A stretch of DNA of 64,000 bases, from positions 1,249,753-1,313,752 of the forward strand of contig CATQHL010000001.1 in the NCBI GenBank assembly GCA_958295925.1, in the 5' to 3' direction. The notes beneath the pieces are model-generated. The model had not been told where the DNA came from. It ran no database searches and saw nothing but the letters and a program-made list of their open reading frames with translations. A program made the translations under genes and the position numbers. Source of the stretch: an uncultured Acidimicrobiales bacterium (GTDB lineage: Bacteria > Actinomycetota > Acidimicrobiia > Acidimicrobiales > CATQHL01). Of the stretch, positions 7,532 to 32,402 are shown piece by piece (position 1 is the stretch's first letter; each line of letters starts with the position of its first letter).

Positions 7532-8653
7532 TCACCGCACATGCCACTCCAGCACAGCGAACGCGCCCAAGCCCGACGGGTCGCACAAAGCCTCAGCCTC
7601 GACAACACGGCTACGGGCCACAACAGCCGCCAAATCCCCGATCCCAGCCCGCTTCCCCCAATTATCCCTGCCCTCCGCAACCATCCTCTCCAAGCCGAGG
7701 CCGCGGAGGTAAGACGCCTGGTCGCTCACCTGCGCACCAGGGTGCGCGCACAGGATTTGATCTAGCGGGACTTCCACAGTGATGTCCTGCAGCCCGGTGT
7801 CAGCAAGCGGGGGGGCTCCCCTTGCCTGAGAGCGGTAGGTACGCAGCCACTCGCCTTGCGGGCGGGCCGCCAGCGAAGAGGTGACGTCGGCGTAGTCGAC
7901 AACGATCAACCTGCCTGCGTGGAGCAGATCGAGCGCGCGCCCGACCCAGCCAACCGCCTCTGCTGCCAGGGGAATTCGAGACCCCTGCGGAGCGTCTGGA
8001 GCCAAGCAATCGGCGAACTCGGCGTCGGCAGACGGCAGCGGCCTGAGGGCTTCCCGCCGACAGGCAGCGAGAGGAAACGCCGCTTCTGCAGCGGGAGGGG
8101 GCGCACTTGTCTTGTTCCATCCGCTGGCGTGCGGACCTTCAGCGACGGCTGCGACCTCTTCCACATAAACCTCGCTCCAACCCTCGAATGTGCGTTCAAA
8201 GAGGCGGGCAGGCAGGTTGTCAAGCAGTTCGTTGGCAATGATTGCGCCGCAAAGCGGACGCTCCGGCAAGTCCGGCAGCGACACCACCTCGGTGACTCCG
8301 CGTTTTGCCGCTAAATCCGCCAGAGAGTCGTGCGCTCGGCGGAGCACTTCCGAGCGCTCCACTAGCACATACCGCAAAACGGGGGCGCAGCGAGGGCGGG
8401 CTGCCATCACCGACCGCGCCAGCGTGCCGGCCCCCGCCCCGGCGTCCACGACGGTGAAGTCCTGCGGGCGACCCAGCTCATCCCAAATCGAGTCGAGCTT
8501 CGAAGCGATCAGGAGGCCAAAAAGAGGTCCAACTTCGGGACTGGTCAGAAAATCGCGCCCGCGGCGACCAGCACCTCTCCCAGCGGTATAGAACCCGCCT
8601 GGCCCATACAAAGCGGTCTCCATGAACTCGTCAAACCGCTGCAGGCACTTCAA
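7532..8653 (-). CDS. SAM-dependent methyltransferase, MidA/NDUFAF7-like (COG1565/DUF185 family)
   Basis: 373-aa ORF. It contains FMETALYGPGGFY, DFLTSPEVGPLFGLLIA and VVDAGAGAGTLARSV (SAM-binding motif I), which matches my recollection of the MidA family layout. Confidence 0.7.
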   Translation of the reverse strand: MKCLQRFDEFMETALYGPGGFYTAGRGAGRRGRDFLTSPEVGPLFGLLIASKLDSIWDELGRPQDFTVVDAGAGAGTLARSVMAARPRCAPVLRYVLVERSEVLRRAHDSLADLAAKRGVTEVVSLPDLPERPLCGAIIANELLDNLPARLFERTFEGWSEVYVEEVAAVAEGPHASGWNKTSAPPPAAEAAFPLAACRREALRPLPSADAEFADCLAPDAPQGSRIPLAAEAVGWVGRALDLLHAGRLIVVDYADVTSSLAARPQGEWLRTYRSQARGAPPLADTGLQDITVEVPLDQILCAHPGAQVSDQASYLRGLGLERMVAEGRDNWGKRAGIGDLAAVVARSRVVEAEALCDPSGLGAFAVLEWHVR

Positions 8654-9637: not shown

Positions 9638-11284
9638 CTAACCAGGAAATGGTGACAGCAGCGACACGTCGGTGAGGGTGCTCACCGTAAACGGCAGTAT
9701 GCCGAAGACCAGCGTTGCGAGCGAAGTGATGGTGAGCGCCGCCCGCAGGGAAAAGGGCAGAAGATTCAGAGGGGTGCGAACCATCGCGGGAATCGGCTGC
9801 GTGGAATCGGAAAGCGGCGCAGCGGCTGCAGGATCGGGGCTCGCACCCTCTTCCGACACCCCGACTGATGCAACTTCGGGGACGGCTTCGGCCGACGCAG
9901 CCCAGGGCTTCTCAAACCACATGCGGGCGGCGATCTTGCCGTAGTAGCCCACAGCGATCACAGCGTTAACAGCGGCGACGGCCGCAAGTACGTAACCCGA
10001 GGCGTTGTCGGCGGAAACAAGCGCCTTGAACACGACGAACTTTGCAAACCATCCGCCTGCCGGCGGTATGCCCGCCAGGGATGCCAGGAAGATCGTCATC
10101 ACCACGGCCATGGCCGGAAAGGTGCGAAACAGCCCGTTGTAAGAGGCGACATCGCCGGTGCGGGTTCGCCGCGCAACTGACATGATCACCGCAAAGGTGC
10201 CCAGGTTCATCGCTGCGTAGATCACCAGGTAGGTCAGCACCGCGGACGTGGCGTCGTCGGCAGCCAGGGTGCTGCTGCCGGCAATCGCAAGCGGCGCAAT
10301 CATGAATCCGGCCTGGGCGACGCCCGAATAGGCCATCAGGCGCACGATGTTCTTCTGCCGTAAGGCCATCAGGTTGCCGGCGGTCATCGACGCGGCGGCC
10401 AGGAACCACAGCAGCGGCCCGTAGACGTTGGAGCGCTCCCAGAATCCCACATAGACCAGGGCCATAAGCGCAACGAAGCCGGCGGTCTTGGACGCCACCG
10501 AAAGGAAGGCCGTGATAGGGGTGGGTGAGCCCTCGTAGACATCCGGCGCCCAGGTGTGGAAGGGAAACGCCGAGACCTTGAAGGCGAACCCCACAATCAC
10601 GAACACCACCCCCAAGATCACCACAGCGGACGACGCTGAACCGCTTGACAGGCCGGGGGAGGCGGAGATTTCCGAAAGGATCGTGCTGCCGGACACGCCG
10701 AAGAGCAGGGACATGCCGTAGAGCATGATCGCCGAGGCGAACACCCCCATCAGATAGTACTTCACCCCCGCCTCGTTGCTCCGGAGGTCGCGCTTGCGCC
10801 AGGTGGCCAGCAGGTAAGCCGGGATGGAGAGCAGTTCGAGGGCCACGAAGATGCTGATGAGGTCGCGGGCCGAGGACATCACAACCATGCCCAGAAGGGA
10901 GGAGAGCATCAGGCCGTAGTACTCGTTGCCCCAGTAGTCGCCCTCGGCCACGTAGTGGGTGGACATCAGGATCACCACATACCCGGCGGCCACGAACAGC
11001 CCCTTCAGCAACAGCGCAAAACCGTCCACCACGTAGGCCCCGCCGAAGAGCACCCGGGGCTCGCCCACCACCCCGGCGGCCAGCAGCGTGAAAATCGGCA
11101 CCAGCACACCCAGCATGCCCAGCCCGGCCAGTACGGGTGTTATGTTCCTGCCTCGCTCAGCCAGCAAGACATCAAGCGTTGTGAGCAGGGCTCCCACCCC
11201 CAGCAGGGTGAGTTCCGGCGCAAGGGCGTGCCAGTCGATGTGCGGCCGGATGAAGCCGACAACCCCCAGAACGTCAAGCGCCAT
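9638..11284 (-). CDS. nuoN: NADH-quinone oxidoreductase subunit N (operon 1)
   Basis: 548-aa polytopic antiporter-like protein at the last position of the operon; it has a WAPDVYEGSPTPITAF motif. Confidence 0.9.
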   Translation of the reverse strand: MALDVLGVVGFIRPHIDWHALAPELTLLGVGALLTTLDVLLAERGRNITPVLAGLGMLGVLVPIFTLLAAGVVGEPRVLFGGAYVVDGFALLLKGLFVAAGYVVILMSTHYVAEGDYWGNEYYGLMLSSLLGMVVMSSARDLISIFVALELLSIPAYLLATWRKRDLRSNEAGVKYYLMGVFASAIMLYGMSLLFGVSGSTILSEISASPGLSSGSASSAVVILGVVFVIVGFAFKVSAFPFHTWAPDVYEGSPTPITAFLSVASKTAGFVALMALVYVGFWERSNVYGPLLWFLAAASMTAGNLMALRQKNIVRLMAYSGVAQAGFMIAPLAIAGSSTLAADDATSAVLTYLVIYAAMNLGTFAVIMSVARRTRTGDVASYNGLFRTFPAMAVVMTIFLASLAGIPPAGGWFAKFVVFKALVSADNASGYVLAAVAAVNAVIAVGYYGKIAARMWFEKPWAASAEAVPEVASVGVSEEGASPDPAAAAPLSDSTQPIPAMVRTPLNLLPFSLRAALTITSLATLVFGILPFTVSTLTDVSLLSPFPG

Positions 11285-11287
11285 CAG

Positions 11288-12934
11288 TCAGTTCCCCTGG
11301 GTTTGCTTGATTTCGGTGCGACGTTCGTCGAAGCACGTCCATCCGTCGTCGGAATCAAGGCAGTCCTGAGCAGAACCAGCAATCGAGGGCACCTCCAGCG
11401 ACTCCCGCACCGCCGGGTCGGTGGCCTCATGCAGCAGCCTGGGGTAGAACCCAAGCACGACGATCAGCACCAGCAGGGGCGCCCAGGAGATGTACTCGTG
11501 TCGCTTCACGTCCTTTATGTCAGGGGAGTTCGCGAACTCCTTGCGGGCCTTGCCGAAGGCCGTCTTCTGCAGCATCCAGAGCAGATAGCCGGCAGCCAGC
11601 ACCGTGCCGACGGCAGCTATCACCATGTAGGCGCGGAACACGCCCTGATGAAGGATGGCAGCCGGGCTGTAGGAGGCCAGGATGGCTGGGAACTCACCCC
11701 AGAACCCCGCCAGGCCGGGCAGGCCAAGTGAGGCCATGACGCAGAACCCAAGCATCCAGCCCATGCGCGGGGCCTGTTTCAACAGCCCGCCGAGGCGGGA
11801 CATCTCCAGGGTGTGGTAGCGCTCCTTCATCGAGCCGGCAAGGAAGAAGAGCATTCCGGTTATGAGTCCGTGGGCGACCATCCCGAAAACTGCGGCGTTG
11901 ACGCCAAAGGGGGTGAGGGTGGCGATGCCGAGCATCACAAACCCCATGTGCGCGACCGAGCTGAATGCGATCAGCCGCTTCATATCTCGCTGAGCCAGGC
12001 ACCCAAGGGCGCCGTAGATGATGCCTATCACGGCAAGAAGGCCGATCACCGGCGCCCAGGCGGCGGCCGCCTCAGGAAGCATCGGCACCGCCACGCGCAC
12101 GAAACCGTAGGTTCCCAGCTTCAGCAACACCGCCGCCAAAATCACTGAACCAACCGTCGGCGCCTCGGTGTGGGCGTCGGGCAGCCAGGTGTGGAACGGG
12201 AACATGGGCACCTTCACCCCGAAGCCCAGGAACATCCCGGCGAAAATCCAGACCTGGCTGGTGCGGGCGATTGCGGCGGTGGCGCCGCCGGAGAGTGCTC
12301 GCATGTCGAACGTCCGCACGGCGTCAAGCCCGGCGAGGGTGCCGTCGGCCAGGAAGAACATCGCAAGGAAGCTGATGAGCATCAAGGCCGAGCCGAAGAG
12401 GGTGTACAAGAAGAACTTGATGGAGGCGTAGCGTCGGTTCTCGCCGCCCCAGACACCGATCATGAAGTACATCGGCAGCAGGACAATCTCAAAGAAGACG
12501 AAGAACAAAATGAGGTCTTGCGCAACGAATGTGCCCACCATTCCCGTCTGAAGGATCAGCAGAAGCGTGAGGAACGACTTGGGGTTGCGCGGCTCGGGAA
12601 AGTGGTCGAAGGAGTAGACGATGCAGAGCGGCACCACCAGCAGCGTGAGCAATATCAGGGGCAGGGAGATGCCGTCTATCCCCATGATGTAGCGGCTGTT
12701 GATTGTCTCGATCCAAGGCTTGTCGACCACAAACTGCAGGTCGCCCGCTCGGGAGGTGTCGAACCAACTCAGAAGGAACACGCCAATCAGCGCCGCTAGC
12801 AGCGACGAACCCAAGGCGACGACCTTTAGCGACCACTCGTTGCGCTTGGGGATTGCCAGCAGCACGAGAGCGCCCAGCATCGGCACGAAGGTGACGAGCG
12901 TCAGCCCCCATCCGTTCAGAAAATCTTGCATCAA
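11288..12934 (-). CDS. nuoM: NADH-quinone oxidoreductase subunit M (operon 1)
   Basis: 548 aa; contains FGVKVPMFPFHTWLPDAHTEAPT. Position and family are typical of NuoM. Confidence 0.9.
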   Translation of the reverse strand: MMQDFLNGWGLTLVTFVPMLGALVLLAIPKRNEWSLKVVALGSSLLAALIGVFLLSWFDTSRAGDLQFVVDKPWIETINSRYIMGIDGISLPLILLTLLVVPLCIVYSFDHFPEPRNPKSFLTLLLILQTGMVGTFVAQDLILFFVFFEIVLLPMYFMIGVWGGENRRYASIKFFLYTLFGSALMLISFLAMFFLADGTLAGLDAVRTFDMRALSGGATAAIARTSQVWIFAGMFLGFGVKVPMFPFHTWLPDAHTEAPTVGSVILAAVLLKLGTYGFVRVAVPMLPEAAAAWAPVIGLLAVIGIIYGALGCLAQRDMKRLIAFSSVAHMGFVMLGIATLTPFGVNAAVFGMVAHGLITGMLFFLAGSMKERYHTLEMSRLGGLLKQAPRMGWMLGFCVMASLGLPGLAGFWGEFPAILASYSPAAILHQGVFRAYMVIAAVGTVLAAGYLLWMLQKTAFGKARKEFANSPDIKDVKRHEYISWAPLLVLIVVLGFYPRLLHEATDPAVRESLEVPSIAGSAQDCLDSDDGWTCFDERRTEIKQTQGN

Positions 12935-12941
12935 CAGCCTC

Positions 12942-15104
12942 CTATAAGACCAGGATGAGCACCACGGCGATCAGTGCCGCCACCACGAACATGACTCCTG
13001 CGTACTGCTGCACCTTGCCGGTCTGCATCCGGCGGATCTCCTCGCCGGCGCCGTGCGAAGCCCTCCCCGTGGCGTTCACAACGCCGTCTACGACTTTCTG
13101 ATCAATCTTGTCGTAGAGAACGTGACCTGCGGACACCGCCTTGCGGCCGGCCTGGTTGACCACTTCGTCGATGCCGCGCTGGTTCAGCCAGTAGGCGCCC
13201 CTTGCCACCGGGCCGGCGGTGCCCTTGGCCAGGATGTCGGTGTAGAGATGGTCGAGGTAGTACTTGCGGGCGAGCAGCCTGTGGCCAAGACGGGCGATGC
13301 GGAAACGGCTGGTGAGGCCGTTGGGCAACTCTGTGGCCGAACCCCCCAGGGCCCGAACCTTCACGAAGTAGTAGTAGTACGCGGCCCCCAGCCCGAACAG
13401 CACCACGAGGGTGGAGAAGGCCGCCAGGGTCCAGCTGGGCGTGGCGTGGGCTATGTGGGGGAAGTAGAAACCCTCCGCGGCGCGAGGCTCAACGTAGTGG
13501 CCGAACTGCTCCCGCCATCCTTTGGGGACGATCTGGAATCCCTTGGGAAGGTTCGTCCACCCTGCGCCAACCGCGAACACGGCCAGTATCCAGAGCGGGA
13601 CGGTGATCCGGCGCCCGGACTCGTGAGGGTGACCGTGCCCACGGTATGTCCCGAAAAAGGTGAGGTAGACGCAGCGGGTCATGTAGGCGGCGGTGAGGGC
13701 GGCGGTGAGCATCGCCATGAACAAGACGAAGGTGTATGCGCCGTTGCCGCCTGTGCCGCCAAAAGCCCCCCAGCCACCCGTGCCCGCCAAGATCTCATCC
13801 TTCGACCAGAATCCTGCCAAAGGCGCAAGCCCGGCCAGCGCCAGGGAGGCGATGACGAACGTCCGGAAGGTGTGCGGCATGTGCTTTCTCAAGCCGCCCA
13901 TGTCCTTTTTCATGTCGAAGCTGTGCACGGCGTGTGAGACCGAGCCCGAACCCAGGAACAGGCAGGCCTTGAAGAAGGCGTGCGTGAAAAGGTGAAAGAC
14001 CGCCGCCGTCCAGGCTCCCACCCCCAGCGCCAGCACCATGTAGCCCAACTGGCTGATGGTGCTGTACGCCAGCACGCGCTTTATGTCGGTCTGGACGAAC
14101 GCCAGTGAAGCCCCCACCAGCGTGGTAATGCCGCCCATAATCGCCAAGGCGTTCACAGAGGAACCCGCTATGGCCAATCCCTCGAAGAACACGGCGAACA
14201 GGCGGGCGACCATGTAGACCCCGGCCACCACCATCGTGGCGGCGTGGATGAGCGCGGAGACAGGGGTGGGGCCGGCCATGGCGTCGGGCAGCCAGGTATG
14301 CAGAAAGAACTGCCCCGACTTCGACATCACCGCAGCCATCAGGCACAGCGACGCGGCAAGCAGCAATCCGTGGGCGATGGAACCCTCTGCAGCCAGCGAG
14401 TTGATCTTCACCACCGAGAAGGAATCGGCCGCAAAGAACAATATGGCCATCCCTATGAGCAGGCCGATGTCGCCCACACGGTTGGTGAGGAAAGCCTTGA
14501 GCGCGGCGTTGGAGTTGGCCTTCTCCTCCCACCAGTGGCCAATGAGAACGAAGGAGCACACACCCACCATCTCCCAGCCCAGGATCATCTGAATCGTGTT
14601 CTCCGACAGCACGAAGAAGAGCATCGAAGCCGTGAACAGGGAAAGGAACGCAAAGAAGTGCGTGTAGCGAACGTCGCCTGCCACGTAATCGGTGGAGTAG
14701 ATGTGCACCAGCAGCGAAACGAGCGTCACCACAAAGATGAGCGCGACGGCAAGGCCGTCCACGAGCGTCCCGATTGTGAATGAGGTCCCGCCTGAGATCC
14801 ACCAGGTCCACTTGCTGATTGCCGGGGAGACGGCGGCGTCGCCAGCGGCGTTGACCGCGCCTATCCACTGCACGAGAGTCAACAGTCCCAGCACGAACGA
14901 AGCCGCCACGGCGGTGATGCCCACCTCCGAGCCGCCCCGCGGCATGCGTTTCCCGAAGAGCAGGATGATCAGGAAGGAAGCCGCCGGAATCAACGGGATG
15001 AGCCAGGCGTTGGCGAGGAACCAGCCGCCCGCCTTGACGACCTCTGCGCCCGCCTCGGCCGCAAAAACCGCAGGGGTGGTTGCGAAAGCGCCTAAGAGTC
15101 CCAC
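12942..15104 (-). CDS. nuoL: NADH-quinone oxidoreductase subunit L (operon 1)
   Basis: 720 aa; contains GWEMVGVCSFVLIGHWW and KSGQFFLHTWLPDAMAGPTPVSALIHAATMV. Confidence 0.9.
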   Translation of the reverse strand: MGLLGAFATTPAVFAAEAGAEVVKAGGWFLANAWLIPLIPAASFLIILLFGKRMPRGGSEVGITAVAASFVLGLLTLVQWIGAVNAAGDAAVSPAISKWTWWISGGTSFTIGTLVDGLAVALIFVVTLVSLLVHIYSTDYVAGDVRYTHFFAFLSLFTASMLFFVLSENTIQMILGWEMVGVCSFVLIGHWWEEKANSNAALKAFLTNRVGDIGLLIGMAILFFAADSFSVVKINSLAAEGSIAHGLLLAASLCLMAAVMSKSGQFFLHTWLPDAMAGPTPVSALIHAATMVVAGVYMVARLFAVFFEGLAIAGSSVNALAIMGGITTLVGASLAFVQTDIKRVLAYSTISQLGYMVLALGVGAWTAAVFHLFTHAFFKACLFLGSGSVSHAVHSFDMKKDMGGLRKHMPHTFRTFVIASLALAGLAPLAGFWSKDEILAGTGGWGAFGGTGGNGAYTFVLFMAMLTAALTAAYMTRCVYLTFFGTYRGHGHPHESGRRITVPLWILAVFAVGAGWTNLPKGFQIVPKGWREQFGHYVEPRAAEGFYFPHIAHATPSWTLAAFSTLVVLFGLGAAYYYYFVKVRALGGSATELPNGLTSRFRIARLGHRLLARKYYLDHLYTDILAKGTAGPVARGAYWLNQRGIDEVVNQAGRKAVSAGHVLYDKIDQKVVDGVVNATGRASHGAGEEIRRMQTGKVQQYAGVMFVVAALIAVVLILVL

Positions 15105-15113
15105 GCCAGTCCT

Positions 15114-15413
15114 TCAGCCTTTCATCATGTCGACGTCGTGGATGTCCACGCTGCGTCGGTTCCGGTACAGCAGCAGCAGGATGGCAAGGCCAACCCCCAC
15201 CTCGGCTGCGGCCACAGTGATCACGAACAGGGCGAAGACCTCCCCCACCACGGTCTGGACGTAGCTCCCGAACGCCACCAGGTTGATGTTCACGGCGTTG
15301 AGGATGAGCTCAATCGACATCAGCACCAGCACGCCGTTGCGTCGCGCCAGCACGCCGTAGACGCCGATGGAGAAAAGCACCGCTGAGAGCACCAGGAACT
15401 GGTTCAACCACAT
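15114..15413 (-). CDS. nuoK: NADH-quinone oxidoreductase subunit K (operon 1)
   Basis: 99 aa with three TM helices; contains [16 protein letters not shown] and [13 protein letters not shown]. Confidence 0.9.
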
Positions 15414-15419
15414 TGTCGG

Positions 15420-15929
15420 CTACTCCCTGCGCGCCACGACGATGGCACCAATCAGAGCAGCCAACAGCAGCACCGAGACGGCCTCGAACGGGATGATGTA
15501 TTGGGAGAAGATGGAATCCGACACCTCAGCGGTGGTGGTGCGGGTGTCCGCCCCCAGTTCCGCGTCGCCGAAGCCTGCGATGACGGTGTAGATGGTCACG
15601 CCAGCCACAGCCAAGCCGGCCAGGATTGCCCCGAGTCGGTTGCGATGGTCTGTCTTCTCCTCGTCGCCGATGCGGGTTCGGGTAAGCATTATTCCGAAGA
15701 GGAAGAGAATGATCACCGCCCCGATGTAGATGAGAATCTGGGTGATGCCCACAAACTCCGCGCCCATCAGCAGGAACAGCGCAGCCACCCCACCCAGCAC
15801 CCCTACCAGGTACAGGGCGGCGTGAACCACGTTGCGGGTGGTCACCAGCCGCAACGCTGCGAAGACCATCAGAGCGGCGATCACCCAAAAGACGACGTTC
15901 TGCGCAACCAGCAGGGAAAATACGCTCAC
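15420..15929 (-). CDS. nuoJ: NADH-quinone oxidoreductase subunit J (operon 1)
   Basis: The track ORF 15420..16154 overlaps nuoI in another frame. I trimmed it to the GTG at 15929 (residue 76), giving VSVFSLLVAQNVVFWVIAALMVFAALRLV..., 12 nt after the nuoI stop. Confidence 0.85.
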   Translation of the reverse strand: MSVFSLLVAQNVVFWVIAALMVFAALRLVTTRNVVHAALYLVGVLGGVAALFLLMGAEFVGITQILIYIGAVIILFLFGIMLTRTRIGDEEKTDHRNRLGAILAGLAVAGVTIYTVIAGFGDAELGADTRTTTAEVSDSIFSQYIIPFEAVSVLLLAALIGAIVVARRE

Positions 15930-15942
15930 CCGCCAAGACCTC

Positions 15943-16473
15943 TCACTGCGGCACGGCCCGCTTTTTCTGGGTGGAGCCCGCTTCGTAGCCCTCAAACTCC
16001 GGAACCGTGTCCATCCAGTCGGCCAGGCGGTCGGCGTCGTGCAGCAAATCGGCAATGCGGGGTTCGGAGTACTCGAACTCCGGGCTCCAGAAGAGGGCGT
16101 CGAAGGGGCAGACCTCCACGCAGATTCCGCAGTACATGCACAGCGCGTAGTCAATGTCGAAGCGGTCGATCTTGTTGCGCTGGCGAGGCTTGCCGCCAGG
16201 GCGACGCGGGGGGGCGAGTTCCTTGTGCCCCTCTATGTAGATGCACCAGTCGGGGCACTCCCTTGCACAGAGCATGCACACTGTGCAGTTGTCGTGATGC
16301 AGGCCGATCACGCCCCTGGCCCTGGTAACCGGCTCCTCCTTGACATGCGGATACTGAACGGTGTGCGCCCCGCGGGTGGGCGATGGCGGCTTTGTGAGCC
16401 CATCGGGAAACAGGGTGCGGAGCATCGTGCGCGCCGTCACGCCCATTCCTGTCAAGAGTCCTTTTCCTTTCAT
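15943..16473 (-). CDS. nuoI: NADH-quinone oxidoreductase subunit I (operon 1), 2x[4Fe-4S]
   Basis: 176 aa; [12 protein letters not shown] and [12 protein letters not shown] ferredoxin motifs. Confidence 0.9.
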
Positions 16474-16614
16474 GCTTTCACCCTTCCTGGCTGTTGACCG
16501 ACAGCTTTCCGGTGTTTGAACGACCAGACAGGTCGCAGGCCATCGATGCCTGACGACAGCGGGAGTTCAAAAAGACGAAGCCCGTCCTGCGCTTCGCCCG
16601 CGCACCAGCGCACA

Positions 16615-17664
16615 TCACACAAACACCTTGAATATGCCTGTCATGACGATGTTCAACAACGAGAGCGGGATGAGGACCTTCCAGGCGAACTTCTGAAGCT
16701 GGTCTTCCCGCAGGCGAGGGAAGGTGAAGCGAAACCAGAAGATCAACGCCGAGACGGCCATGATCTTCACGAACATAACGATGGGGCCAACCAGGTTCAG
16801 CCAGTTGGAGTCCACGTCGAAGCCCGGCACGTACCAGCCACCAAGGAAGAGGACTGAGGCGATTCCTGCGAAGGCGAAGGCCGTGCCGAACTCCGCCATG
16901 AAGAAAAAGAGAAAACGGAAGCCGGTGTACTCCACCTGGTAGCCCCCCACCAGTTCCGACTCGGCGACCGGCATGTCAAACGGGGGCTGGGTGAGCTCGG
17001 CCTGGACCGCCACGAGGAAGATGGCGAAGCCCACGAACTGCGTGAGGATGAAGGGAAAGCCGATCCCGCCCCAGCCGAACAGTTCGCCGGTGGCCTGCGC
17101 CACGACGATCTTGTTGAGATCCAGCGTGCCCGCCTGGATCACAACCCCCATCACCGCCAGAACCAGCGGCAGTTCATAGGCGATGAGCTGGCCTGCGGCA
17201 CGCATCCCGCCCATCAGCGCGTACTTGTTGGCGGAGCCCCAGCCCGCCATCAGCACCCCTATCACCGAGAGCGAAGCAACCGCCAGGGCGAAGAACAGGC
17301 CGGCGTCAAGCCCCGAGACAACGGCGTCAGGCCCCATCGGCAGAACCACGTACAGCAGGAAAGTGGAGATCAGCACCACGGCGGGCGCAAGGGCGAAGAC
17401 GGCGCGGTCGGCCCGACGGGGGAACACGTCCTCTTTCTGCAGGAACTTGAGGCCGTCGGCCAGGAGCTGCAGCGAGCCGTGCGGTCCGGCTTCCATCGGC
17501 CCGAGGCGGCTCTGCATGAAGCTCATCATCTTCAGCAGGAACACGTACCCCAATATGAGGGCCGCGGTGGGGATCACGATGGCCACAACCACCAGCTTGA
17601 TGGCGGTCTGCTGCCAGTAGGCCAGCTCGACGGCGAAGACGCTCAGGGACGCGGCGGCGCTCAT
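16615..17664 (-). CDS. nuoH: NADH-quinone oxidoreductase subunit H (operon 1)
   Basis: 349 aa; contains SRLGPMEAGPHGSLQLLADGLKF and PFDMPVAESELVGGYQVEY. Confidence 0.9.
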   Translation of the reverse strand: MSAAASLSVFAVELAYWQQTAIKLVVVAIVIPTAALILGYVFLLKMMSFMQSRLGPMEAGPHGSLQLLADGLKFLQKEDVFPRRADRAVFALAPAVVLISTFLLYVVLPMGPDAVVSGLDAGLFFALAVASLSVIGVLMAGWGSANKYALMGGMRAAGQLIAYELPLVLAVMGVVIQAGTLDLNKIVVAQATGELFGWGGIGFPFILTQFVGFAIFLVAVQAELTQPPFDMPVAESELVGGYQVEYTGFRFLFFFMAEFGTAFAFAGIASVLFLGGWYVPGFDVDSNWLNLVGPIVMFVKIMAVSALIFWFRFTFPRLREDQLQKFAWKVLIPLSLLNIVMTGIFKVFV

Positions 17665-18830
17665 CGGTCGATGTCACCCAGGATGAAGTAGAGGCTGGCC
17701 AGGATGGTGATCACGTCGGGCACGTACACGCCTCGGAGCACCCACGGCACAACAGAGATGTTGCTGAATGAGGCGGAGCGGATCTTCACCCTGAAAGGCG
17801 CCAACTCGCCCTTGCTCACCACGTAGTAGCCCATCACTCCAAGGGGGTTCTCAGTGGCCACGTATGCCTCGCCCGCGGGCACCTTGATGATGCGCGGCAC
17901 CTTGGCCATGATCGGCCCCGAAGGCAGCCCGTCGAGGAGCTGCTCGACCATGTAGGTGGCTTCCCGGGTTTCCTGCAGCCGTACCCAGTAACGGGCGAAG
18001 GAGTCGCCGTCGGGGTGCGTCCAGACCTTCCAGTCCAACGACTCGTAAGCCAGGCCGCAGGGGTTGTCGCGGCGCATGTCCCAGTCAACCCCGGCGGCGC
18101 GGAGGTTTGCGCCGGAAAGCCCGAAGGACGCCGCCACATGGTCGGGAATGACCCCCACGCCCCGTGTGCGGGCTTCAAAGATCTCGTTGCCCATCAGCAG
18201 GTCTTCAAGCTCATCGCAGAAACCGCGCATCTTTGCCATCACGCTCTTGGTCTCGGCGATCCAGCCCGCCGGCAGGTCGTCTTTAAGCCCGCCGATTCGG
18301 TCGAAGTTGGGGTGAAAGCGCCCGCCCGTGACCGCCTCTATCTGGTTGAGCACGAACTCCCTGTCTCTGAAGGCGAAGAAGACGGGGGTGAGGGCGCCCA
18401 GCTGCACGCCCATGTCGCCTAGGAACAGGGAGATGTTGGCGATTCTGGAGAGCTCGAACAGGGCGGTGCGAATCCACTGTGCGCGGGGCGGGGCCTCTAT
18501 ATCCATCAGTCGCTCGGCGGCGAGGATGAACGGCACCTCGTTGGCGAAGCTCCCCAGCCAGTCGATGCGGTTGATGAGGGTGGTGACCTGCGGATACGTG
18601 CGCACCTCCGCCAGCTTTTCGTAGCCCCGATGCATGTAGCCCATCACTGGCTCGGCGGCCACTACCTGCTCGCCGTCCAGGCGGGCCACGATGCGCAGGG
18701 TGCCGTGGGTGGCGGGGTGCTGCGGGCCGATGTTGAGGGTCATCCCCTCCGTCTCCAGCTCGACGTTGACCCTGGCGTCGGCCGACGCTGCGTCTACGTA
18801 CGCCTGCTGCTCCCTTTCGGTGAACGTCAC
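17661..18830 (-). CDS. nuoD: NADH-quinone oxidoreductase subunit D (operon 1)
   Basis: Track ORF 17661..19022 trimmed to the GTG at 18830 (residue 65), which forms a GTGA overlap with the nuoC stop. Contains MTLNIGPQHPATHGTLRIV. Confidence 0.9.
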   Translation of the reverse strand: MTFTEREQQAYVDAASADARVNVELETEGMTLNIGPQHPATHGTLRIVARLDGEQVVAAEPVMGYMHRGYEKLAEVRTYPQVTTLINRIDWLGSFANEVPFILAAERLMDIEAPPRAQWIRTALFELSRIANISLFLGDMGVQLGALTPVFFAFRDREFVLNQIEAVTGGRFHPNFDRIGGLKDDLPAGWIAETKSVMAKMRGFCDELEDLLMGNEIFEARTRGVGVIPDHVAASFGLSGANLRAAGVDWDMRRDNPCGLAYESLDWKVWTHPDGDSFARYWVRLQETREATYMVEQLLDGLPSGPIMAKVPRIIKVPAGEAYVATENPLGVMGYYVVSKGELAPFRVKIRSASFSNISVVPWVLRGVYVPDVITILASLYFILGDIDR

Positions 18831-19516
18831 TGCCCGGCTCCTGCAGGCGGCTCTTCGCCCTCGGCGGGCATACCCTCCACGTCCACGATGCCCGGCCAGG
18901 GCTTTACCCGGCGGGCCAGCAGCGGGAAGTCCTTGCGCAGGGGATGGCCCTCGAACTCGCCGGGCAGGTAGATGTGGCGCAGGTCGGGGTGGCCGACGAA
19001 GGCGATGCCAAACATCTCCCACGCCTCCCGCTCGTGCCAGTTGGCGCCGGAATAGACAGGTATCCAGGTGGGCACCGCTGGATTCTCGTTTGGGAGGTCG
19101 GCCTTGGCGATTACCCCCAGGCCGGTTTGCGTATTCATCACCCTGGCGAAGACCTGCAAGCGGGTCTCGCCGCCAGTTACGCCGCTCTCTATGGAGAGAT
19201 CGCGGGGATCAGGGCCGCCCGTCGGCCAGTCCTGTTCTGCGTCCATGTCCCGGCCGAAGGGGGAGGGCATCCAGTCGATGGCCGAAAGGAAGTCGAACCA
19301 GAGGCAGCCAAGACGGTCGCGCAGCACGTAGCCAACCTGCTGCCAGGCCTGATGTTCGACACGCACCCAGAGGTCGCCTTCGGCGTGAGTGGCCAGCAGC
19401 GCGTCGCCAAGAGCCTCGCCCAGGGTCTCTACGGCCTCGGCGCGCAGCGCTTCAAGAGGCGTGGGCGACGGCGCCCCGCCGTCTGTCTCGGCTATCGCAG
19501 AGGTCGGCTCGGCCAT
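18827..19516 (-). CDS. nuoC: NADH-quinone oxidoreductase subunit C (operon 1)
   Basis: Track ORF 18827..19945 overlaps nuoB out of frame. I trimmed it to ATG 19516 (MAEPTSAI...). Contains [42 protein letters not shown]. Confidence 0.85.
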   Translation of the reverse strand: MAEPTSAIAETDGGAPSPTPLEALRAEAVETLGEALGDALLATHAEGDLWVRVEHQAWQQVGYVLRDRLGCLWFDFLSAIDWMPSPFGRDMDAEQDWPTGGPDPRDLSIESGVTGGETRLQVFARVMNTQTGLGVIAKADLPNENPAVPTWIPVYSGANWHEREAWEMFGIAFVGHPDLRHIYLPGEFEGHPLRKDFPLLARRVKPWPGIVDVEGMPAEGEEPPAGAGQ

Positions 19517-19530
19517 TCCTGCCAGTTCGG

Positions 19531-20031
19531 TTATTCCACCACTATCGGGTCGCCACGCCAGCGGGCGGCGATGTCCTCGTTTGCGATGCGCTCCTGGAGC
19601 AGCACTATCCCCTCCAGCAGCGCCTCCGGTCGAGGCGGGCAACCCGGCACGTAGACGTCCACCGGGATGATCTGGTCGACGCCCTTGGTTACTGAGTAGG
19701 AGTCCCAGTAGGGCCCCCCGCAGTTGGCGCAGGAACCCATCGAGATCACGTATTTCGGATCGGGCATCTGTTCGTAGAGGCGGAGCAGCGACGGCACCAT
19801 CTTGTCGGTGACCGTGCCGGAGACAACCACGAGGTCGGCCTGTCGCGGGCTGGCGGGGAAGGGAATTACCCCAAGGCGCATCACGTCGTAGCGGGGGGAG
19901 CCGAAAGCGGCGCCCATCTCGATGGCACAACAGGCGAGGCCCCACTGGTAGACCCAGAGGGAGTACTTCCGTGAGAGGTTGAGCAGTTTCGTGAGCGGGG
20001 CGGGCATCTTTCCGCTCTCGATGAGTCCCAT
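19531..20031 (-). CDS. nuoB: NADH-quinone oxidoreductase subunit B (operon 1)
   Basis: 166 aa. The cluster N2 ligand motifs are all present: [17 protein letters not shown] and PGCPPRPE. Confidence 0.9.
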
Positions 20032-20088
20032 CAGCCGCTTCCCTCCTTTAGCTTCGCCATTGGCCTTGCCGAGCGGGACACGCCTGCC

Positions 20089-20463
20089 CTACACCCATTG
20101 CAGGACGCGCTTGCGCCACGCATAGAACAAGCCAAGGGCAAGAATGAAGATGAAGATCGCCATCTCCACCAGGCCGAACACCCCATAGGTCTCGAGACGT
20201 GTCGCCCACGGGAAAATGAAGACGGCCTCAACGTCGAACATCACGAAGAGCAGCCCGAAGAGGTAATAGCGAAGACGGCTCTGCGACCATCCCTCCCCGA
20301 CGGGATCAACACCGCTCTCGTAGCTGATGTACTTTTGCTTTTGAGGACGCTCAGGGCGCAGCACGGAAGCCAGCGTGAGCATGAGGGCGACCATTATCAC
20401 GGCTAGCAGGGCGAAGATTCCGACCGTGAGGTAGCTGCGCAGGAAGTCGGACACGGGAGACAA
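20089..20463 (-). CDS. nuoA: NADH-quinone oxidoreductase subunit A (operon 1)
   Basis: 124 aa with three TM helices; contains YESGVDPVG and FDVEAVFIFPWA. Confidence 0.9.
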   Translation of the reverse strand: MSPVSDFLRSYLTVGIFALLAVIMVALMLTLASVLRPERPQKQKYISYESGVDPVGEGWSQSRLRYYLFGLLFVMFDVEAVFIFPWATRLETYGVFGLVEMAIFIFILALGLFYAWRKRVLQWV

Positions 20464-20639: not shown

Positions 20640-22007
20640 CTACCCGGCCCCGGGAAGCCCTTCAAGGGCGGCCTGGACCTTCTCTTCTGGAAAGCCGTAG
20701 TCGCTCAACTCGCCGGAAAGGTAAGAGTCGAACGCAGAGAGGTCGAGCAGACCGTGGCCGCACATCGCCGTGAGGATCACCTTCTCCTCTCCCGTCTCGG
20801 CGCAGCGGCGCGCCTCGGCCACCGCCGCTGCGATGGCGTGCGTGGGCTCGGGGGCGGGGACGATGCCCTCGCAGCGGGCAAACAATATCCCCGCCTCGAA
20901 GCACTCCGACTGCAGCTTGGCCTCGGCGGTAATGAGGCCAAGCTCGTAGATGTGCGAGAGCAGTGGCGACATGCCGTGATAGCGCAGGCCGCCCGAGTGA
21001 ATGGGATCGGGCACGAAGGAGTGCCCGAGCGTGCGCATCTTCAGCAGCGGCGTGAAGCCTGCCGCGTCGCCGAAGTCGTATGTGTAGACGCCCTTCGTGA
21101 ACGACGGACAGGCCGACGGCTCGACGCAGCGAATTTCCGGGCTCATCCTTCCTGCCATCTTCTCGCGCAGAAACGGCATGGAGAGCCCGGCGAAGTTCGA
21201 TCCGCCGCCCGTGCAGCCCACTATGAGGTCTGGCTCCTCACCGAGCACGGCCATCTGCTCGAGCGCCTCCTGGCCGATGACTGTCTGATGCAGCAGAACG
21301 TGGTTGAGCACGCTGCCAAGGGAGTAGTGCGTGTTTGCGTCGCCGGCGGCAACCTCTATGGCCTCGCTAATGGCGATGCCCAGGCTGCCAGGGTTGTCGG
21401 GATCTTGCTCCAGATACTTCTGCCCCGTCTCGGTGACATTCGACGGACTGGGGTGCACCTCGGCGCCGAAGACCTCCATCATCAGGCGCCGGTAGGGCTT
21501 CTGGTCGTAGGAGGCGCGCACCTGCCACACCTCGCATTCGACAGCGAAGGCACTGCAGGCGAACGCCAACGCCGCTCCCCACTGACCCGCGCCAGTCTCG
21601 GTGGTGAGTTTCCTCACGCCTTCCTCGGCGTTGAAGAACACCTGGGGGACTGCGGTGTTTGGCTTGTGCGAGCCAACCGGGCTGGCGCCCTCGTACTTGT
21701 AGTAGATGCGTGCCGGGGTCCCGAGTGCCTTCTCCAGACGGCGGGCGCGCATCAGCGGTGTGGGGCGCCAGAGGCGGTAGACATCCTGAACTGGCTCGGG
21801 GATGTCGATGTAGCTCTCGCCACTGACCTCCTGGAGAATCAGCCCCATCGGGAAGAGCGGGGTGAGGGCGTCGGGGCCGACCGGCTCCATCGTGGCCGGA
21901 TGCAGCGGTGGCGGAGGCGGGGAAGGCAGGTCGGGAATGACGTTGTACCAATGCGTCGGCATCCGCTCTTCGGACAAAAGGGTTTTGATTGTTTTAGCCA
22001 TGGCCAA
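20640..22007 (-). CDS. trpB2: TrpB-like PLP enzyme (tryptophan synthase beta, TrpB2 type)
   Basis: 455 aa. The N-terminal extension [13 protein letters not shown], the PLP-lysine motif GSHKPNTA, and GGGSNFAG are all characteristic of TrpB2. No trpA is adjacent. Confidence 0.85.
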
Positions 22008-22142
22008 ATCCTAGATCAGCATCGAAAATTCGTGCAGGGGTGGGAGGAGGACGCCGAGCGGGATTCCCAAGCCCTCCAACCCCCTCACCCCACAGAATTA
22101 GCTAGCCCGGAAAGCAATACTTTCGGCCAGGGAAAGAGGCGA

Positions 22143-23054
22143 CTAGCCGGTCGGCATGTCTCCGTTCATCGGGACATCGAAGAGGAGGGCGTCTTCTTCA
22201 AACCACTTTTTGCTCAAGGCGTTCAGAGAGCCGTCGGCCTTCATTTCGACGATGACTGCGCTTATTTTGGCCCGCAGGTCGTCATCCTCCTCTCGGAAGC
22301 CCATGGCGGATCCCAGACGGGGAAACTCAACCTCGTCTCCGACAATCTCGAGCGCGCCGTCGGATTCGGCCACAAATCTCCTCGCCGACCCGATGTCGTT
22401 CAAAAGGGCGTCTGCTGCGCCACTCAACACGGCCTCGAAAATTTCCTGCTGCGTGTCGAGCGCAAGCAGCGTGGCCGAAGTTTGCTTGTCGACGTAGTCG
22501 GCCTGGACGGTGGCGCTGATGGCTGCAACCACGCCCCTAATCACGTCCTCACCTGCACCCGCCTTGGAGACATACACCGATGGGGCCGACGGCTGGTAGA
22601 CCTCGGAAAAGTCGATCAGTTCGTCCCGCTCGGGCGTGTTGTACATCAATGTCAAGATGACGTCAAACTCACCGGCAATGAGGTTGGGCATGAGCGAAAC
22701 CCACTCGTTCCTGACCCAGACGCACTCAAGCTGCGCCCTGCGGCAGACCTCGTCGCGCAGTTCCGGCTCGAAGCCGTCGATTTCGCCGTCGTCGTTCACG
22801 AAATTCGACGGTGGGTACTGGGCATCGATGCCGAAGCGGACTGGGCCGTCGCCATAGGCGACAACTACCGGCTGCTCAGGTTCGGGTGGTGGATCATCCT
22901 CGGGCTTGGTGGTGGAGGTGGTGTCGTCATCATCGGGGTTTGCCTGTTCCTGGCCAACGACGCCCGTTCCGCCAGCGAGAAGGGCGACAGCGAGGACGAA
23001 GACTGCAACCGTCACGCCGATGGGTGCGACCTTTCTTGAAACCGGCTTGAGCAT
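22143..23054 (-). CDS. family-3 (amino-acid type) extracellular solute-binding protein, with no adjacent permease or ATPase
   Basis: 303 aa with an N-terminal TM/signal segment and an acidic Pro-rich linker. Contains FGIDAQYPPSNFVNDDGEIDGFEPELRDEV...MPNLIAGEFDVILTLMYNTPERDELIDFSEVY, the SBP_bac_3 pattern. Confidence 0.75.
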   Translation of the reverse strand: MLKPVSRKVAPIGVTVAVFVLAVALLAGGTGVVGQEQANPDDDDTTSTTKPEDDPPPEPEQPVVVAYGDGPVRFGIDAQYPPSNFVNDDGEIDGFEPELRDEVCRRAQLECVWVRNEWVSLMPNLIAGEFDVILTLMYNTPERDELIDFSEVYQPSAPSVYVSKAGAGEDVIRGVVAAISATVQADYVDKQTSATLLALDTQQEIFEAVLSGAADALLNDIGSARRFVAESDGALEIVGDEVEFPRLGSAMGFREEDDDLRAKISAVIVEMKADGSLNALSKKWFEEDALLFDVPMNGDMPTG

Positions 23055-23179
23055 GCGCCTACCCTACATTCCTTATCCACTATGTGCTTTCGTATGCATT
23101 TTCGCGAAACCATTTGTATTCGCAAAACTGGGCGGCTTCATTTGTAACTTTGGGGGCATCGGCTGCTCCAAGAACTGCC

Positions 23180-26100: not shown

Positions 26101-26221
26101 CAACTATTTGAAGTCGTTCGGGCGCTGGGCATTCATAGAGTGCGCGGATGTCTGGGAAATAGAGGAGGAGCTGCACGAGCAGATCGACCGGGCGACAATC
26201 AAGGAAAGGCTGGCAGCGTAA
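23180..26221 (+). CDS. res: type III-like restriction enzyme Res subunit: SF2 helicase plus C-terminal PD-(D/E)xK nuclease
   Basis: Track ORF 23084..26221. I prefer ATG 23180 (MNDDFFTKPILNSPYEHPGRHW). It has motif I (MATGAGKTTV), motif II (INDEGHH, a DExH box), and the C-terminal nuclease motif YIPDFIVLI...HLVVEVKGYRG. GC content is host-like, about 65%. Confidence 0.85.
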   Translation: MNDDFFTKPILNSPYEHPGRHWKLDDDRQPTSCVVQRRRKADFITPIPKSRKSKAQQREMSFDAKARALEAEGSGQYRIAEVINDLRGVVEAWRLSPEREWRVTAETARLLRHWRTHEFNDIRPFFCQVEAVETIIWLTEVAPKIGNRGKSFLEHLNVANDEANPGLSRLALKMATGAGKTTVIAMIIAWQTVNAVRHPRSNRFTNGFLVVTPGITIRNRLRVLQPNDPDSYYERRELVPRDMLSELGKARIVITNYHAFLRREAMELTKAGRALLQGRGPALETKETEGQMLQRVMPSLMGFKQIMAINDEGHHCYREKPPEDSDEKTLTGDEKVEASANKEAARVWISGLEAVGRKIGLSRVVDLSATPFFLRGSGYAEGTLFPWTMSDFSLLDAIESGIVKLPRVPVADNVPSEEMPKFRNIWEHIGKKMPKGRRSKKVVLDPLKLPIELQTAFEALYGHYEKTFTAWERDGIEAPPCFIVVCNNTATSKLVYDYISGFHREQEGGQREFHNGRLALFRNYGNSGAPLPRPRTLLIDSVQLESGEALSADFRKVAAEEIERFRRDFVQRTGNRRQAENLSEQDLLREVMNTVGRPGLLGGETRCVVSVSMLTEGWDATNVTHVMGVRAFSTQLLCEQVVGRALRRQSYDLNAEGLFDVEYADVLGIPFDFTAKPVVAPPQKPRETVLVKAVSPDRDACEIRFPRVEGYRVELPEDRLDAVFNNDSTMVLTPQLVGPSITRNEGILGESAELTLDHLKSKRLSTITYRLTKRLLETKWRDAGDLPRLHLFGQLKRITRRWLDEHLVCKGGTFPAQVLYQELADTACERINIGIVEQHRGERPITAILDPYNPVGSTSEVHFTTSKTPRWRTRSDLCHVNWAVCDSEWEAEFCRAIESYPRARAYVKNQGLGLEVPYQMGSEPRRYIPDFIVLIDDGHGDDDLLHLVVEVKGYRGENAKVKKLTMDTFWVPGVNYLKSFGRWAFIECADVWEIEEELHEQIDRATIKERLAA

Positions 26222-26377
26222 TCAGTTGGTTATTATGACAGAAAAACTTCTTTGAGGTCGATTATAATGCTATTGAAACCAATCGTTTCGAAACCTTCGA
26301 CGGGGCATTGTTCTGCTTGCAACACGATTATAACCTGAAGGCATCTTTGCAAGACCCGATAATCCTAGACTGTTCTA

Positions 26378-27160: not shown

Positions 27161-27209
27161 GTTTGCTTTTCTCATCAATCAATAGCTTTTGATATAGGGG
27201 GCACAGACG

Positions 27210-27506: not shown

Positions 27507-27513
27507 ACCGGAA

Positions 27514-30045: not shown

Positions 30046-30247
30046 CTACACCTGTCGGCAGCCGGACAGCAATCTCAAACTTGAACTCCACGCGATCTCC
30101 TTCAATTATTGCGTCGCTTTCAGCGTCGCCGCGGCGTAAGTCACGAAAGAGAGTCGCCATCGCCTCGGAGGTGTTCCTCAACTCAGATGGGTTTCCTCGA
30201 AGTCGCTGGCGGGCATGCCTATCTCCTTTTCCCAAATTGCGCCCCTT

Positions 30248-30267
30248 GGCGGGCGGGCGGGCGGGCG
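30248..30267. repeat. (GGCG)5 tetranucleotide microsatellite
   Basis: ttGGCGGGCGGGCGGGCGGGCGgcc, confirmed against the ORF-track translation PWRAGGRAAN. It lies in the ORF-poor spacer between mod and recQ. Confidence 0.85.
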
Positions 30268-30413
30268 GCCAACTTGACGCCGACGGCCACAGACCCGTAG
30301 ACCAGCACCCTTGAAGCGCCCTCGTCGGCAAGAATGGCGGCGGCCTTGGCTGCGTCTTCCAGCGTCGGGGCCGAAGACGAGGCTGTTACCGCCATAGCCT
30401 GATTCTACATTTT

Positions 30414-32394: not shown

Positions 32395-32402
32395 CGTTTC
32401 TT

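Follow-up and report, generated by a model that had tools for sequence, protein, structure and literature searches.

An 11-gene nuo operon without nuoEFG beside a canonical nuo operon in an uncultured Acidimicrobiales bacterium: a conserved enzyme with an altered quinone pocket and a putative ferredoxin donor

We analyzed a 64,000-nucleotide stretch of the genome of an uncultured Acidimicrobiales bacterium (hereafter, the window), which carries two operons of the complex I type. Operon 1 is an 11-gene set without nuoEFG, and operon 2 is a canonical set of 14 genes. Sequence comparison placed operon 1 in an old lineage of 11-subunit enzymes (Nuo11), and not as a decayed copy of operon 2, and the encoded enzyme, predicted to be functional, is held by purifying selection no weaker than that acting on the neighboring canonical complex I. 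Operon 1 is genetically linked to an NDUFAF7-like arginine methyltransferase, whose mitochondrial counterpart is an assembly factor of complex I. By analogy with related systems, we favor, at about even confidence, the reading that operon 1 encodes a working Nuo11 proton pump, which would act as a ferredoxin:menaquinone oxidoreductase beside the NADH-dependent 14-subunit enzyme (Nuo14).

Gene content, lineage and conservation of operon 1

The listing of open reading frames (ORFs), together with NCBIfam and Pfam scans, identified all eleven genes of operon 1 in the order nuoA-B-C-D-H-I-J-K-L-M-N, contiguous and on one strand, at 9638-20463 (-):

nuoA1, 20089..20463, minus strand: 124 amino acids (aa), TTG start; NCBIfam NuoA NF005839, E=1.7e-39
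nuoB1, 19531..20031, minus strand: 166 aa; NF005012, 219 bits against a cut-off of 116
nuoC1, 18827..19516, minus strand: 229 aa, ATG at 19516; TIGR01961 NuoC_fam, E=1.2e-26, below cut-off
nuoD1, 17661..18830, minus strand: 389 aa, GTG start; NF008974, E=2.4e-122
nuoH1, 16615..17664, minus strand: 349 aa, ATG start; NF004741, E=2e-89
nuoI1, 15943..16473, minus strand: 176 aa; TIGR01971, E=5e-23
nuoJ1, 15420..15929, minus strand: about 169 aa, GTG start at 15929 inferred; NF005168, E=4.7e-36
nuoK1, 15114..15413, minus strand: 99 aa; NF004322, 129.5 bits against a cut-off of 128
nuoL1, 12942..15104, minus strand: 720 aa; NF005141, 582 bits against a cut-off of 556
nuoM1, 11288..12934, minus strand: 548 aa; TIGR01972, 551 bits
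nuoN1, 9638..11284, minus strand: 548 aa; TIGR01770, 366 bits against a cut-off of 333

The N-terminal half of NuoC1 is divergent, and NuoC1 orthologues are 44-81% identical; NuoL1 has an extended C-terminal region. The nuoD1/nuoH1 junction reads ...CGATGAGC..., where the TGA stop of nuoD and the ATG of nuoH share the 4 nt ATGA at 17661-17664, and the nuoH-nuoI gap, the widest within operon 1, measures 141 bp; thus, there is no room for nuoE, nuoF or nuoG. In agreement, neither NCBIfam nor the ORF listing showed these three genes in operon 1, and the N-module, with its flavin mononucleotide/NADH site, is present only in operon 2, where NCBIfam identified the following:

Operon 2, canonical nuoA-N, 14 genes: 35599..50868, minus strand
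nuoE of operon 2: 47360-47989, minus strand
nuoF of operon 2: 46005-47360, minus strand
nuoG of operon 2: 43483-46008, minus strand

An earlier reading of this DNA made from its letters alone (the sequence-only reading) had described an 11-gene operon without nuoEFG, the 4-nt overlap and a complete 14-gene operon, and our scans bore out all three. It had also put the operons 15 kb apart, and the distance from the nuoN2 stop (35599) to the nuoA1 start (20463) is indeed 15,135 bp, with both operons on the minus strand; the separation, however, is a derived state, because defense and other genes were inserted there; in many relatives, the gap between the operons is 64-400 bp. Consensus scans for promoters and terminators over 7000-23500 gave fewer matches than shuffled sequence and were, therefore, uninformative on operon boundaries.

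Identity between the operon 1 and operon 2 paralogues was 37% for A, 53% for B, 34% for C, 38% for D, 38% for H, 34% for I, 30% for J, 41% for K, 38% for L, 44% for M and 35% for N. When the NuoD1 family was scanned for among 1.84 billion cluster representatives, it proved rather isolated: the next full-length clusters were found at 57% and 52% identity, followed by many at 40-44%. The 57% cluster (L083) sits in an Actinomarinales-like operon that matches a published gene context, and three of the nearest representatives at 40-44% (L085, L086 and L087, from Chloroflexota and two other metagenome-assembled genomes, MAGs) are all in EFG-less operons. NuoD1 is, then, 40-44% identical to the NuoDs of EFG-less operons in other phyla, yet 38% identical to NuoD2. 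Among solved structures, NuoH1 matched best the plastid and cyanobacterial NdhA, NdhH ranked high for NuoD1, and the best relative of NuoD2 was M. smegmatis NuoD. Since the nearest outside relatives of NuoD1 are EFG-less and its identity to NuoD2 is so low, sequence comparison points to the old Nuo11 lineage. A recent duplication of operon 2 followed by EFG loss was rejected on the paralogue identities (30-53%) and on the gene context of the nearest relatives, as the sequence-only reading had also held on the basis of diverged paralogue pairs. The NiFe-ligating Cys pairs, the criterion that separates the group 4 membrane-bound hydrogenases (PMC3144371), are absent from NuoD1, unlike in those enzymes, as both its N-terminal GPQHPATHG and its C-terminal ...LGDIDR are without Cys.

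Conservation was counted over 80 related Acidimicrobiia loci that were retrieved, or over subsets of 59, 66, about 70 or 79 loci, or 120 close homologues, where stated. The nearest NuoD1 homologues (82-92% identity) belonged to uncultured Acidimicrobiales/Acidimicrobiia MAGs, many of them sponge-associated (Candidatus (Ca.) Poriferisocius, Ca. Aldehydirespirator and SB06xx bins); the best match was on chromosome OZ241998.1, and a close relative of NuoD1 is encoded in >588 species-level genomes. A comparative paper on sponge Actinobacteriota (PMC11706023) contained nothing on nuo. The A-B-C-D-H-I-J-K-L-M-N order was kept in 80/80 loci, with the D-H adjacency scored in 79 related loci. When the 66 loci holding at least 3 kb upstream of nuoA1 were inspected, a 14-gene operon (...L2-M2-N2) ended at most 7 kb upstream of nuoA1 and on the same strand in 42, and the gap from N2 to A1 was merely 64-400 bp in 15 of those 42. 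The sequence-only reading had treated the locus as a puzzle. The Nuo11/Nuo14 pairing is conserved across Acidimicrobiia and already published for the class, in Ca. Actinomarinales, the 11-subunit type has been known in actinobacteria since 2011 (PMC3144371), and the locus is neither rare nor a new puzzle.

Next, the cofactor ligands and pump residues were examined. All four Cys of the N2 cluster are present in NuoB1 (motifs CCAIEM, GSC and PGCPP), with CCAIEMG retained across about 70 loci; in NuoI1, two CxxCxxCxxxCP motifs account for clusters N6a and N6b, and NuoD1 has the GPQHPATHG motif. Alignment with NuoK2 showed both transmembrane (TM) Glu in NuoK1, and alignment with NuoL2 showed that NuoL1 retains the TM5 Glu, TM7 Lys, TM8 His and TM12 Lys; NuoM1 retains the Glu/Lys/Lys/Glu set and NuoN1 the Glu/Lys/Lys/Lys set. 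No frameshifts or internal stops were found in the operon 1 genes. The median orthologue identity was 88% for NuoB1 and 82% for NuoD1 (ranges across 80 species of 75-98% and 79-92%, respectively), and, across the same genomes, operon 1 orthologues were conserved at least as strongly as those of operon 2 (M1 70% vs M2 65%; N1 57.5% vs N2 47.6%; K1 75% vs K2 68%). The intact ligands and pump residues, together with the conservation of the orthologues, argue for an enzyme that is functional and kept by purifying selection. The redox core had been called intact, and this holds for the Fe-S ligands and the pump residues but not for the quinone site, where residues are replaced in NuoD1, NuoH1 and NuoB1.

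The quinone pocket and the linked methyltransferase

To describe these replacements, NuoD1 was aligned to Thermus Nqo4, gap-free around the relevant motifs, and to NdhH of T. elongatus, and its positions are given in Thermus numbering; those of NuoH1 and NuoB1 were set by the operon 2 paralogues and the numbering in PMC4758237. From the canonical NuoD quinone-site set (His38, Tyr87, Asp139, Phe146 and Asp401), NuoD1 keeps His38 alone, along with His34 and Arg84. The changes are Y87W (W91 of NuoD1, within RIDW), T135D and D139Q (Q143, within LGDMGVQLG), F146V, and D401Y (Y381) with Pro402 replaced by Phe, within SLYFILGDIDR. In NuoH1, E35L, R36L and R50E were found, with Q43 and R45 retained, and NuoB1 has Gly at the position of Thermus Met51. 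All these states are essentially invariant in 70-80 Acidimicrobiia loci and in 120 close homologues. NuoD2 keeps Y87, D139 and D401, NdhH of T. elongatus keeps the equivalents of Tyr87, Asp139 and Asp401, and Tyr87 was observed in 77 of 96 scorable 50%-cluster representatives, nearly always with Asp/Glu139 and Asp/Asn401.

For Degli Esposti, the minimal signature of quinone reactivity consists of Tyr87, Phe146 and Asp401 taken jointly, and Y87W mutants of canonical complex I, cited in the same work, lost most of the decylubiquinone activity (PMC4758237). There, Y87W with a change at position 401 was noted only in piericidin-producing Streptomyces, termed very rare and taken as inhibitor resistance, and NuoD 87 and 401 and NuoH 35, 36 and 50 are given as sites tied to piericidin, rotenone and DQA resistance (PMC4758237). 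This Streptomyces remark was the only mention of the Tyr-to-Trp change that we found in the literature; among the sequences compared here, Trp87 marks a broad actinobacterial NuoD lineage. Because an acid reappears one helical turn away (Asp135) and a Tyr is placed at 401, the pocket looks remodeled rather than lost, and, judging from the substitutions, it should differ from the canonical one in quinone binding and inhibitor sensitivity. Trp87 was also observed in the fused NuoCD of Methanofastidiosia and Methanonatronarchaeales MAGs (P0151 and P0159), yet with Asp139 and Asp401 kept, and this looks like an independent Tyr-to-Trp occurrence.

Downstream of nuoN1, a conserved twelfth gene was found:

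NDUFAF7/MidA-like S-adenosylmethionine-dependent methyltransferase, 7532..8653, minus strand: PF02636, E=3.5e-32

Its product matched the solved structures 4f3n, 1zkd and 5ztz; the last is an NDUFAF7 homologue, and COG1565 structures were among the matches. A PF02636 homologue lies downstream of nuoN1 on the same strand in 41/59 loci, at distances that are mostly 12-400 bp and do not exceed about 1.9 kb, and it also follows nuoN of the Actinomarinales-like operon (L083). When the flanking ORFs of the 80 loci were clustered, this methyltransferase was the sole recurring partner gene; a larger cluster, downstream and on the minus strand, was discarded as probably an antisense shadow ORF of the PF02636 gene. 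In mitochondria, the target of NDUFAF7 is an Arg of NDUFS2, the equivalent of Thermus Arg84, which it dimethylates, and this target-equivalent Arg is conserved in NuoD1 as R88. By analogy, the NDUFAF7-like enzyme probably methylates NuoD1 R88 during assembly.

In the window, nuoN1 and the NDUFAF7-like gene are separated by a truncated Type II DNA methyltransferase fragment, 8844-9329 (-). This fragment is in DNA of lower GC, matches only the first ~128 of 221 Pfam profile positions and looks like an insertion remnant. Stand-alone NuoD-like genes, outside any nuo operon and with Trp87 and a degenerate 139 loop, are present in Actinomycetales MAGs: one W-type NuoD (L084, 1568-2770) directly follows a PF02636 methyltransferase gene, and those of Dermatophilaceae (L081/L082, 10001-11143) are next to a P450 gene.

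Electron donor and alternative readings

From the comparisons given here, we infer which donor and acceptor the operon 1 enzyme uses, in which direction its electrons flow and which of its residues is methylated. In the mechanism that we favor, the Q-module (NuoB, C, D and I) and the P-module (NuoA, H, J, K, L, M and N) would work without the NADH-oxidizing N-module, and a soluble low-potential one-electron carrier, most likely reduced ferredoxin from 2-oxoacid:ferredoxin oxidoreductases, would dock directly on the exposed face of NuoI. Electrons would then pass from N6a to N6b, N2 and menaquinone, while the three antiporter-like subunits would pump protons. In parallel with the 14-subunit NADH:menaquinone enzyme, this would give the cell separate coupled entry points for NADH and ferredoxin. 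Operon 1 belongs to the EFG-less lineage, whose characterized members depend on ferredoxin, and the best solved relatives of NuoH1, the plastid and cyanobacterial NdhA, come from ferredoxin-dependent enzymes. Methanothrix Fpo, which works without FpoF, takes electrons from ferredoxin. The same donor is mentioned for cyanobacterial NDH-1 (PMC11238625), reduced ferredoxin has been noted as an archaeal donor (PMC4453560), and, for the Nuo11 of Desulfitobacterium, rotenone inhibition and proteomics point to PFOR/ferredoxin, the favored donor (PMC11238625). In the Acidimicrobiia order UBA5794, 2-oxoglutarate dehydrogenase was found in no genome, KOR in 85% and POR in 49% (PMC12008989), suggesting that Acidimicrobiia make reduced ferredoxin in central metabolism. 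As for the acceptor, the window contains a MenJ-like menaquinone (geranylgeranyl-type) reductase gene, 58130-59347 (+), below the equivalog cut-off, and this match fits a menaquinone-based chain, with partly saturated menaquinone as the membrane quinone. The genomes of Ca. Actinomarinales are very streamlined. Both operons are retained in them (10.1101/2021.02.01.429150), which argues that the two enzymes are not redundant.

Several observations weigh against the ferredoxin:menaquinone reading. No ferredoxin, flavodoxin or docking-subunit gene is linked to operon 1 in the window or in the 80 relatives, so this donor is assigned only by analogy; that no input module of the FpoF, NdhS or ferredoxin type adjoins operon 1 had been seen already in the sequence-only reading. 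A six-frame ferredoxin motif scan returned only NuoI1, NuoI2 and one 2x[4Fe-4S] ORF, 55916-56332, and the last was not accepted as a dedicated donor, as it is in a Rieske/cytochrome b cluster 35 kb from operon 1. The KOR/POR support comes from order UBA5794 and not from the source genome, the loss of Y87, D139, F146 and D401 from NuoD1 means that menaquinone reduction is not assured, and the frequent tandem position behind the 14-gene operon would also fit sharing of NuoEFG. In the work of Moparthi and Hagerhall, the 11-subunit enzyme turned up across many phyla, actinobacteria among them, again with no partner protein dedicated to it, and the Q-module was proposed as a docking platform for several donors (PMC3144371); the unproven donor is a standing question for all non-photosynthetic Nuo11 enzymes (PMC3144371, PMC11238625).

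The tandem position bears on the first alternative, in which NuoE, F and G of operon 2 would also dock on the operon 1 Q/P modules, generating a second NADH:menaquinone oxidoreductase with an inhibitor-resistance-type pocket, that is, a hybrid or spare complex I. The short distances between the operons (at most 7 kb in 42/66 loci, 64-400 bp in 15) and their common strand make co-expression plausible. Spero et al. pointed out that two isozymes could be made from a genome in which nuoEFG is single and the other genes are present twice (PMC4453560), a 'hybrid machinery' was suggested for the Streptomyces nuo2 cluster (PMC9239103), and the changed NuoD 87 and 401 and NuoH 35, 36 and 50 are resistance sites for piericidin, rotenone and DQA (PMC4758237). 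However, operon 1 comes from an EFG-less lineage, without a history of NuoG binding, its Q-module paralogues are merely 34-53% identical to those of operon 2, Nuo11 enzymes work where nuoEFG is absent or not co-expressed (PMC3144371, PMC11238625), and the retention of a mere spare enzyme is improbable in the streamlined Actinomarinales. We consider this reading unlikely.

A rather unlikely extension is a two-chassis system, where one N-module, or ferredoxin, would feed two Q/P modules, the second being naturally inhibitor-insensitive or differently tuned at the quinone site; the stand-alone W-type NuoDs of Actinomycetales could then be swap-in subunits of a similar sort. Here, the pocket changes coincide with the positions of piericidin/rotenone-class resistance mutations, and the operon is often directly behind the only nuoEFG genes.

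The pocket could also indicate a different acceptor or reverse operation, i.e., a menaquinol-dependent reduction of ferredoxin driven by the proton-motive force, or transfer to another lipophilic or protein acceptor. The changes in NuoD (Y87W, D139Q, F146V and D401Y), NuoH (E35L, R36L and R50E) and NuoB (M51G) are conserved clade-wide, and Trp87 also occurs in the archaeal NuoCD proteins mentioned above. There are precedents: Methanomassiliicoccales have been proposed to possess Fpo-like complexes for which neither quinone nor methanophenazine is the acceptor, and other complex I variants to run electrons in reverse. On the other hand, the enzyme retains His38, Arg84, NuoH Q43 and R45, as well as every E-channel and pump residue, the carboxylate (Asp135) and the Tyr (401) at neighboring pocket positions look like remodeling, a menaquinone-type chain is suggested next door by the MenJ-like and Rieske/cytochrome b genes, and nothing was found in our analysis that points to another acceptor. 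Collectively, this makes a different acceptor a doubtful explanation, again of rather low probability.

Many Actinobacteria make F420. This cofactor could serve the operon 1 enzyme if an FpoF/FqoF-like (FrhB family) subunit encoded elsewhere docked on it, and the product would be an F420H2:menaquinone oxidoreductase. The architecture of Fpo/Fqo, 11 subunits plus FpoF, is compatible with this (PMC3144371), and the NCBIfam Fpo models match operon 1 significantly but below threshold. The Fpo 'exception' models remained far below their cut-offs (FpoD 326/600, FpoH 244/475, FpoL 418/1050), no FrhB/FpoF-like gene was found within the window or beside the operon in 80 loci, and the nearest relatives are bacterial Nuo11 operons; an F420H2-dependent enzyme is, thus, improbable. 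Finally, a decaying or non-functional complex I duplicate that lost nuoEFG, for which the substituted quinone-site residues could be taken as a sign, is effectively refuted by the conservation and is the sole rival effectively excluded, as the genes are free of frameshifts and internal stops, every cofactor ligand and pump residue is in place, NuoD and NuoB are conserved over 80 species at the identities given above with the substitutions themselves invariant, and the lineage is older than the local 14-gene operon.

The locus adds one uncultured Acidimicrobiales genome to a known pattern, and it is a reminder that the donor of non-photosynthetic Nuo11 enzymes remains unproven; the conserved non-canonical pocket and the pairing of NuoD with a methyltransferase are the points most worth attention. 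Acidimicrobiia abound in the sea, in sponges, in soils and in activated sludge, and, if the operon 1 enzyme is a coupled ferredoxin entry point, this would bear on their energy yield.

Neighboring genes and comparison with known systems

The window has a G+C content of about 65%, with several low-GC islands, and from ~57 kb down to 7.5 kb it presents a one-strand respiratory super-cluster: ferredoxin-like protein, split cytochrome b, Rieske protein, cytochrome c, nuo14, nuo11 and, last, the methyltransferase. The DNA that separates the nuo operons is the following:

Spacer of about 15 kb, 20640..35511, no strand assigned: not part of the respiratory system (Pfam, NCBIfam, PADLOC)

It contains a TrpB-like gene, a solute-binding protein, a Type III restriction-modification-like set (ResIII, PDC-M24B and MTase_III), RecQ and a PDC-S06/AAA_13 gene. 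The TrpB-like pyridoxal phosphate enzyme (NF009057, 710 bits), 20640-22007 (-), is immediately upstream of nuoA1 on the same strand, and it is absent from there in the closest relative, L001. The defense genes occupy 23084-30045 (+) and 33232-35511 (+) and comprise the ResIII helicase/REase_III-like gene, PDC-M24B (DUF1828), a full-length Type III methyltransferase (PADLOC 1168 bits) and PDC-S06/AAA_13; the G+C of these stretches falls to 0.43-0.53, against ~0.65 elsewhere. At the corresponding spot, L001 has only RecQ, the solute-binding protein and nuoA1, without the ResIII, PDC-M24B and methyltransferase genes.

Directly upstream of nuoA2, a Rieske/cytochrome b6-type cluster is found at 50889-56961 (-). 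It encodes a 209-aa membrane protein, the 2x[4Fe-4S] ferredoxin-like protein (55916-56332), a split cytochrome b (55111-55878, passing the NCBIfam 'ExtP' cut-off, and 54289-55101, ExtQ-like), the Rieske protein, a c-type cytochrome with two CxxCH motifs and a 403-aa protein without family match. A ferredoxin-like subunit within a bc-type operon is unusual. At one side of the window, 1281-5369 (+) and 5595-7514 (+) encode large paralogues of 1362 and 639 aa, with one fibronectin type III domain each and otherwise no family match; at the window edge, a Type II DNA methyltransferase gene, 61447-62619 (-), of low GC (GC3 0.41; PADLOC 485 bits), was probably acquired.

Among known systems, cyanobacterial and plastid NDH-1 shares with the operon 1 enzyme the eleven homologous core subunits and the lack of an N-module, and the donor of NDH-1 is ferredoxin; its genes, however, are split over several loci. 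The extra subunits of NDH-1 in oxygenic phototrophs are NdhS, V, O, L, M and N. Small ones among the extra subunits take part in ferredoxin binding (PMC4758237), and none of the Pfam families specific for NDH-1 subunits was found among the called and scanned ORFs of the window, nor any conserved small neighbor gene in the 80 loci. Archaeal Fpo/Fqo, as well as Methanothrix Fpo without FpoF, has the same 11-subunit core with an input other than NuoEFG (FpoF, or ferredoxin directly); the acceptor there is methanophenazine, whereas the window has no FpoF/FpoO gene and its matches to the Fpo models are below cut-offs.

The firmicute Nuo11 of Desulfitobacterium hafniense (nuoABCDHIJKLMN) is likewise an EFG-less 11-gene operon with intact Q/P modules, for which ferredoxin is favored (PMC11238625), and it shares the short NuoD architecture, judged by the best NCBIfam model, NF008974. 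In Desulfitobacterium, Nuo11 is the only complex I-type operon described (PMC11238625), whereas the window also has Nuo14, and its Nuo11 pocket is remodeled. The comparison of pocket residues covered the Y-type NuoD representatives nearest to NuoD1, which all belong to EFG-less operons, and these keep Tyr87, Asp139 and Asp401. Bacillus cereus is another example of an organism with Nuo11 (PMC3144371).

Streptomyces coelicolor has, like our bacterium, a second EFG-less cluster, nuo2 (SCO4599-SCO4608), ~25 genes by locus tag from nuoA-N. Its function was described as unclear, with a hybrid machinery as a possibility (PMC9239103), and its proteins were detected in proteomes (PMC9739823). In contrast to the complete 11-gene set of operon 1, nuo2 was reported to lack also NuoC, D and L (PMC9239103). 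Syntrophobacter fumaroxidans, from another phylum, also has a single set of nuoEFG, whereas its remaining nuo genes are present in two copies (PMC4453560).

In Ca. Actinomarinales, Bulzu et al. described an 11-subunit operon followed by NDUFAF7, with a 14-subunit operon nearby (bioRxiv 10.1101/2021.02.01.429150). The arrangement is the same as in the window: the order nuoA,B,C,D,H,I,J,K,L,M,N, then NDUFAF7 (PF02636), and the 14-subunit operon close by. The NuoD of the Actinomarinales-like locus L083 also has Trp at Thermus 87. That version, however, keeps Glu139 and Asp401 and is flanked by heliorhodopsin, afuABC, htpX, rhodanese and pfkB genes, whereas the version in the window has Asp135/Gln139/Tyr401 and none of those neighbors, and the two NuoDs are ~57% identical.

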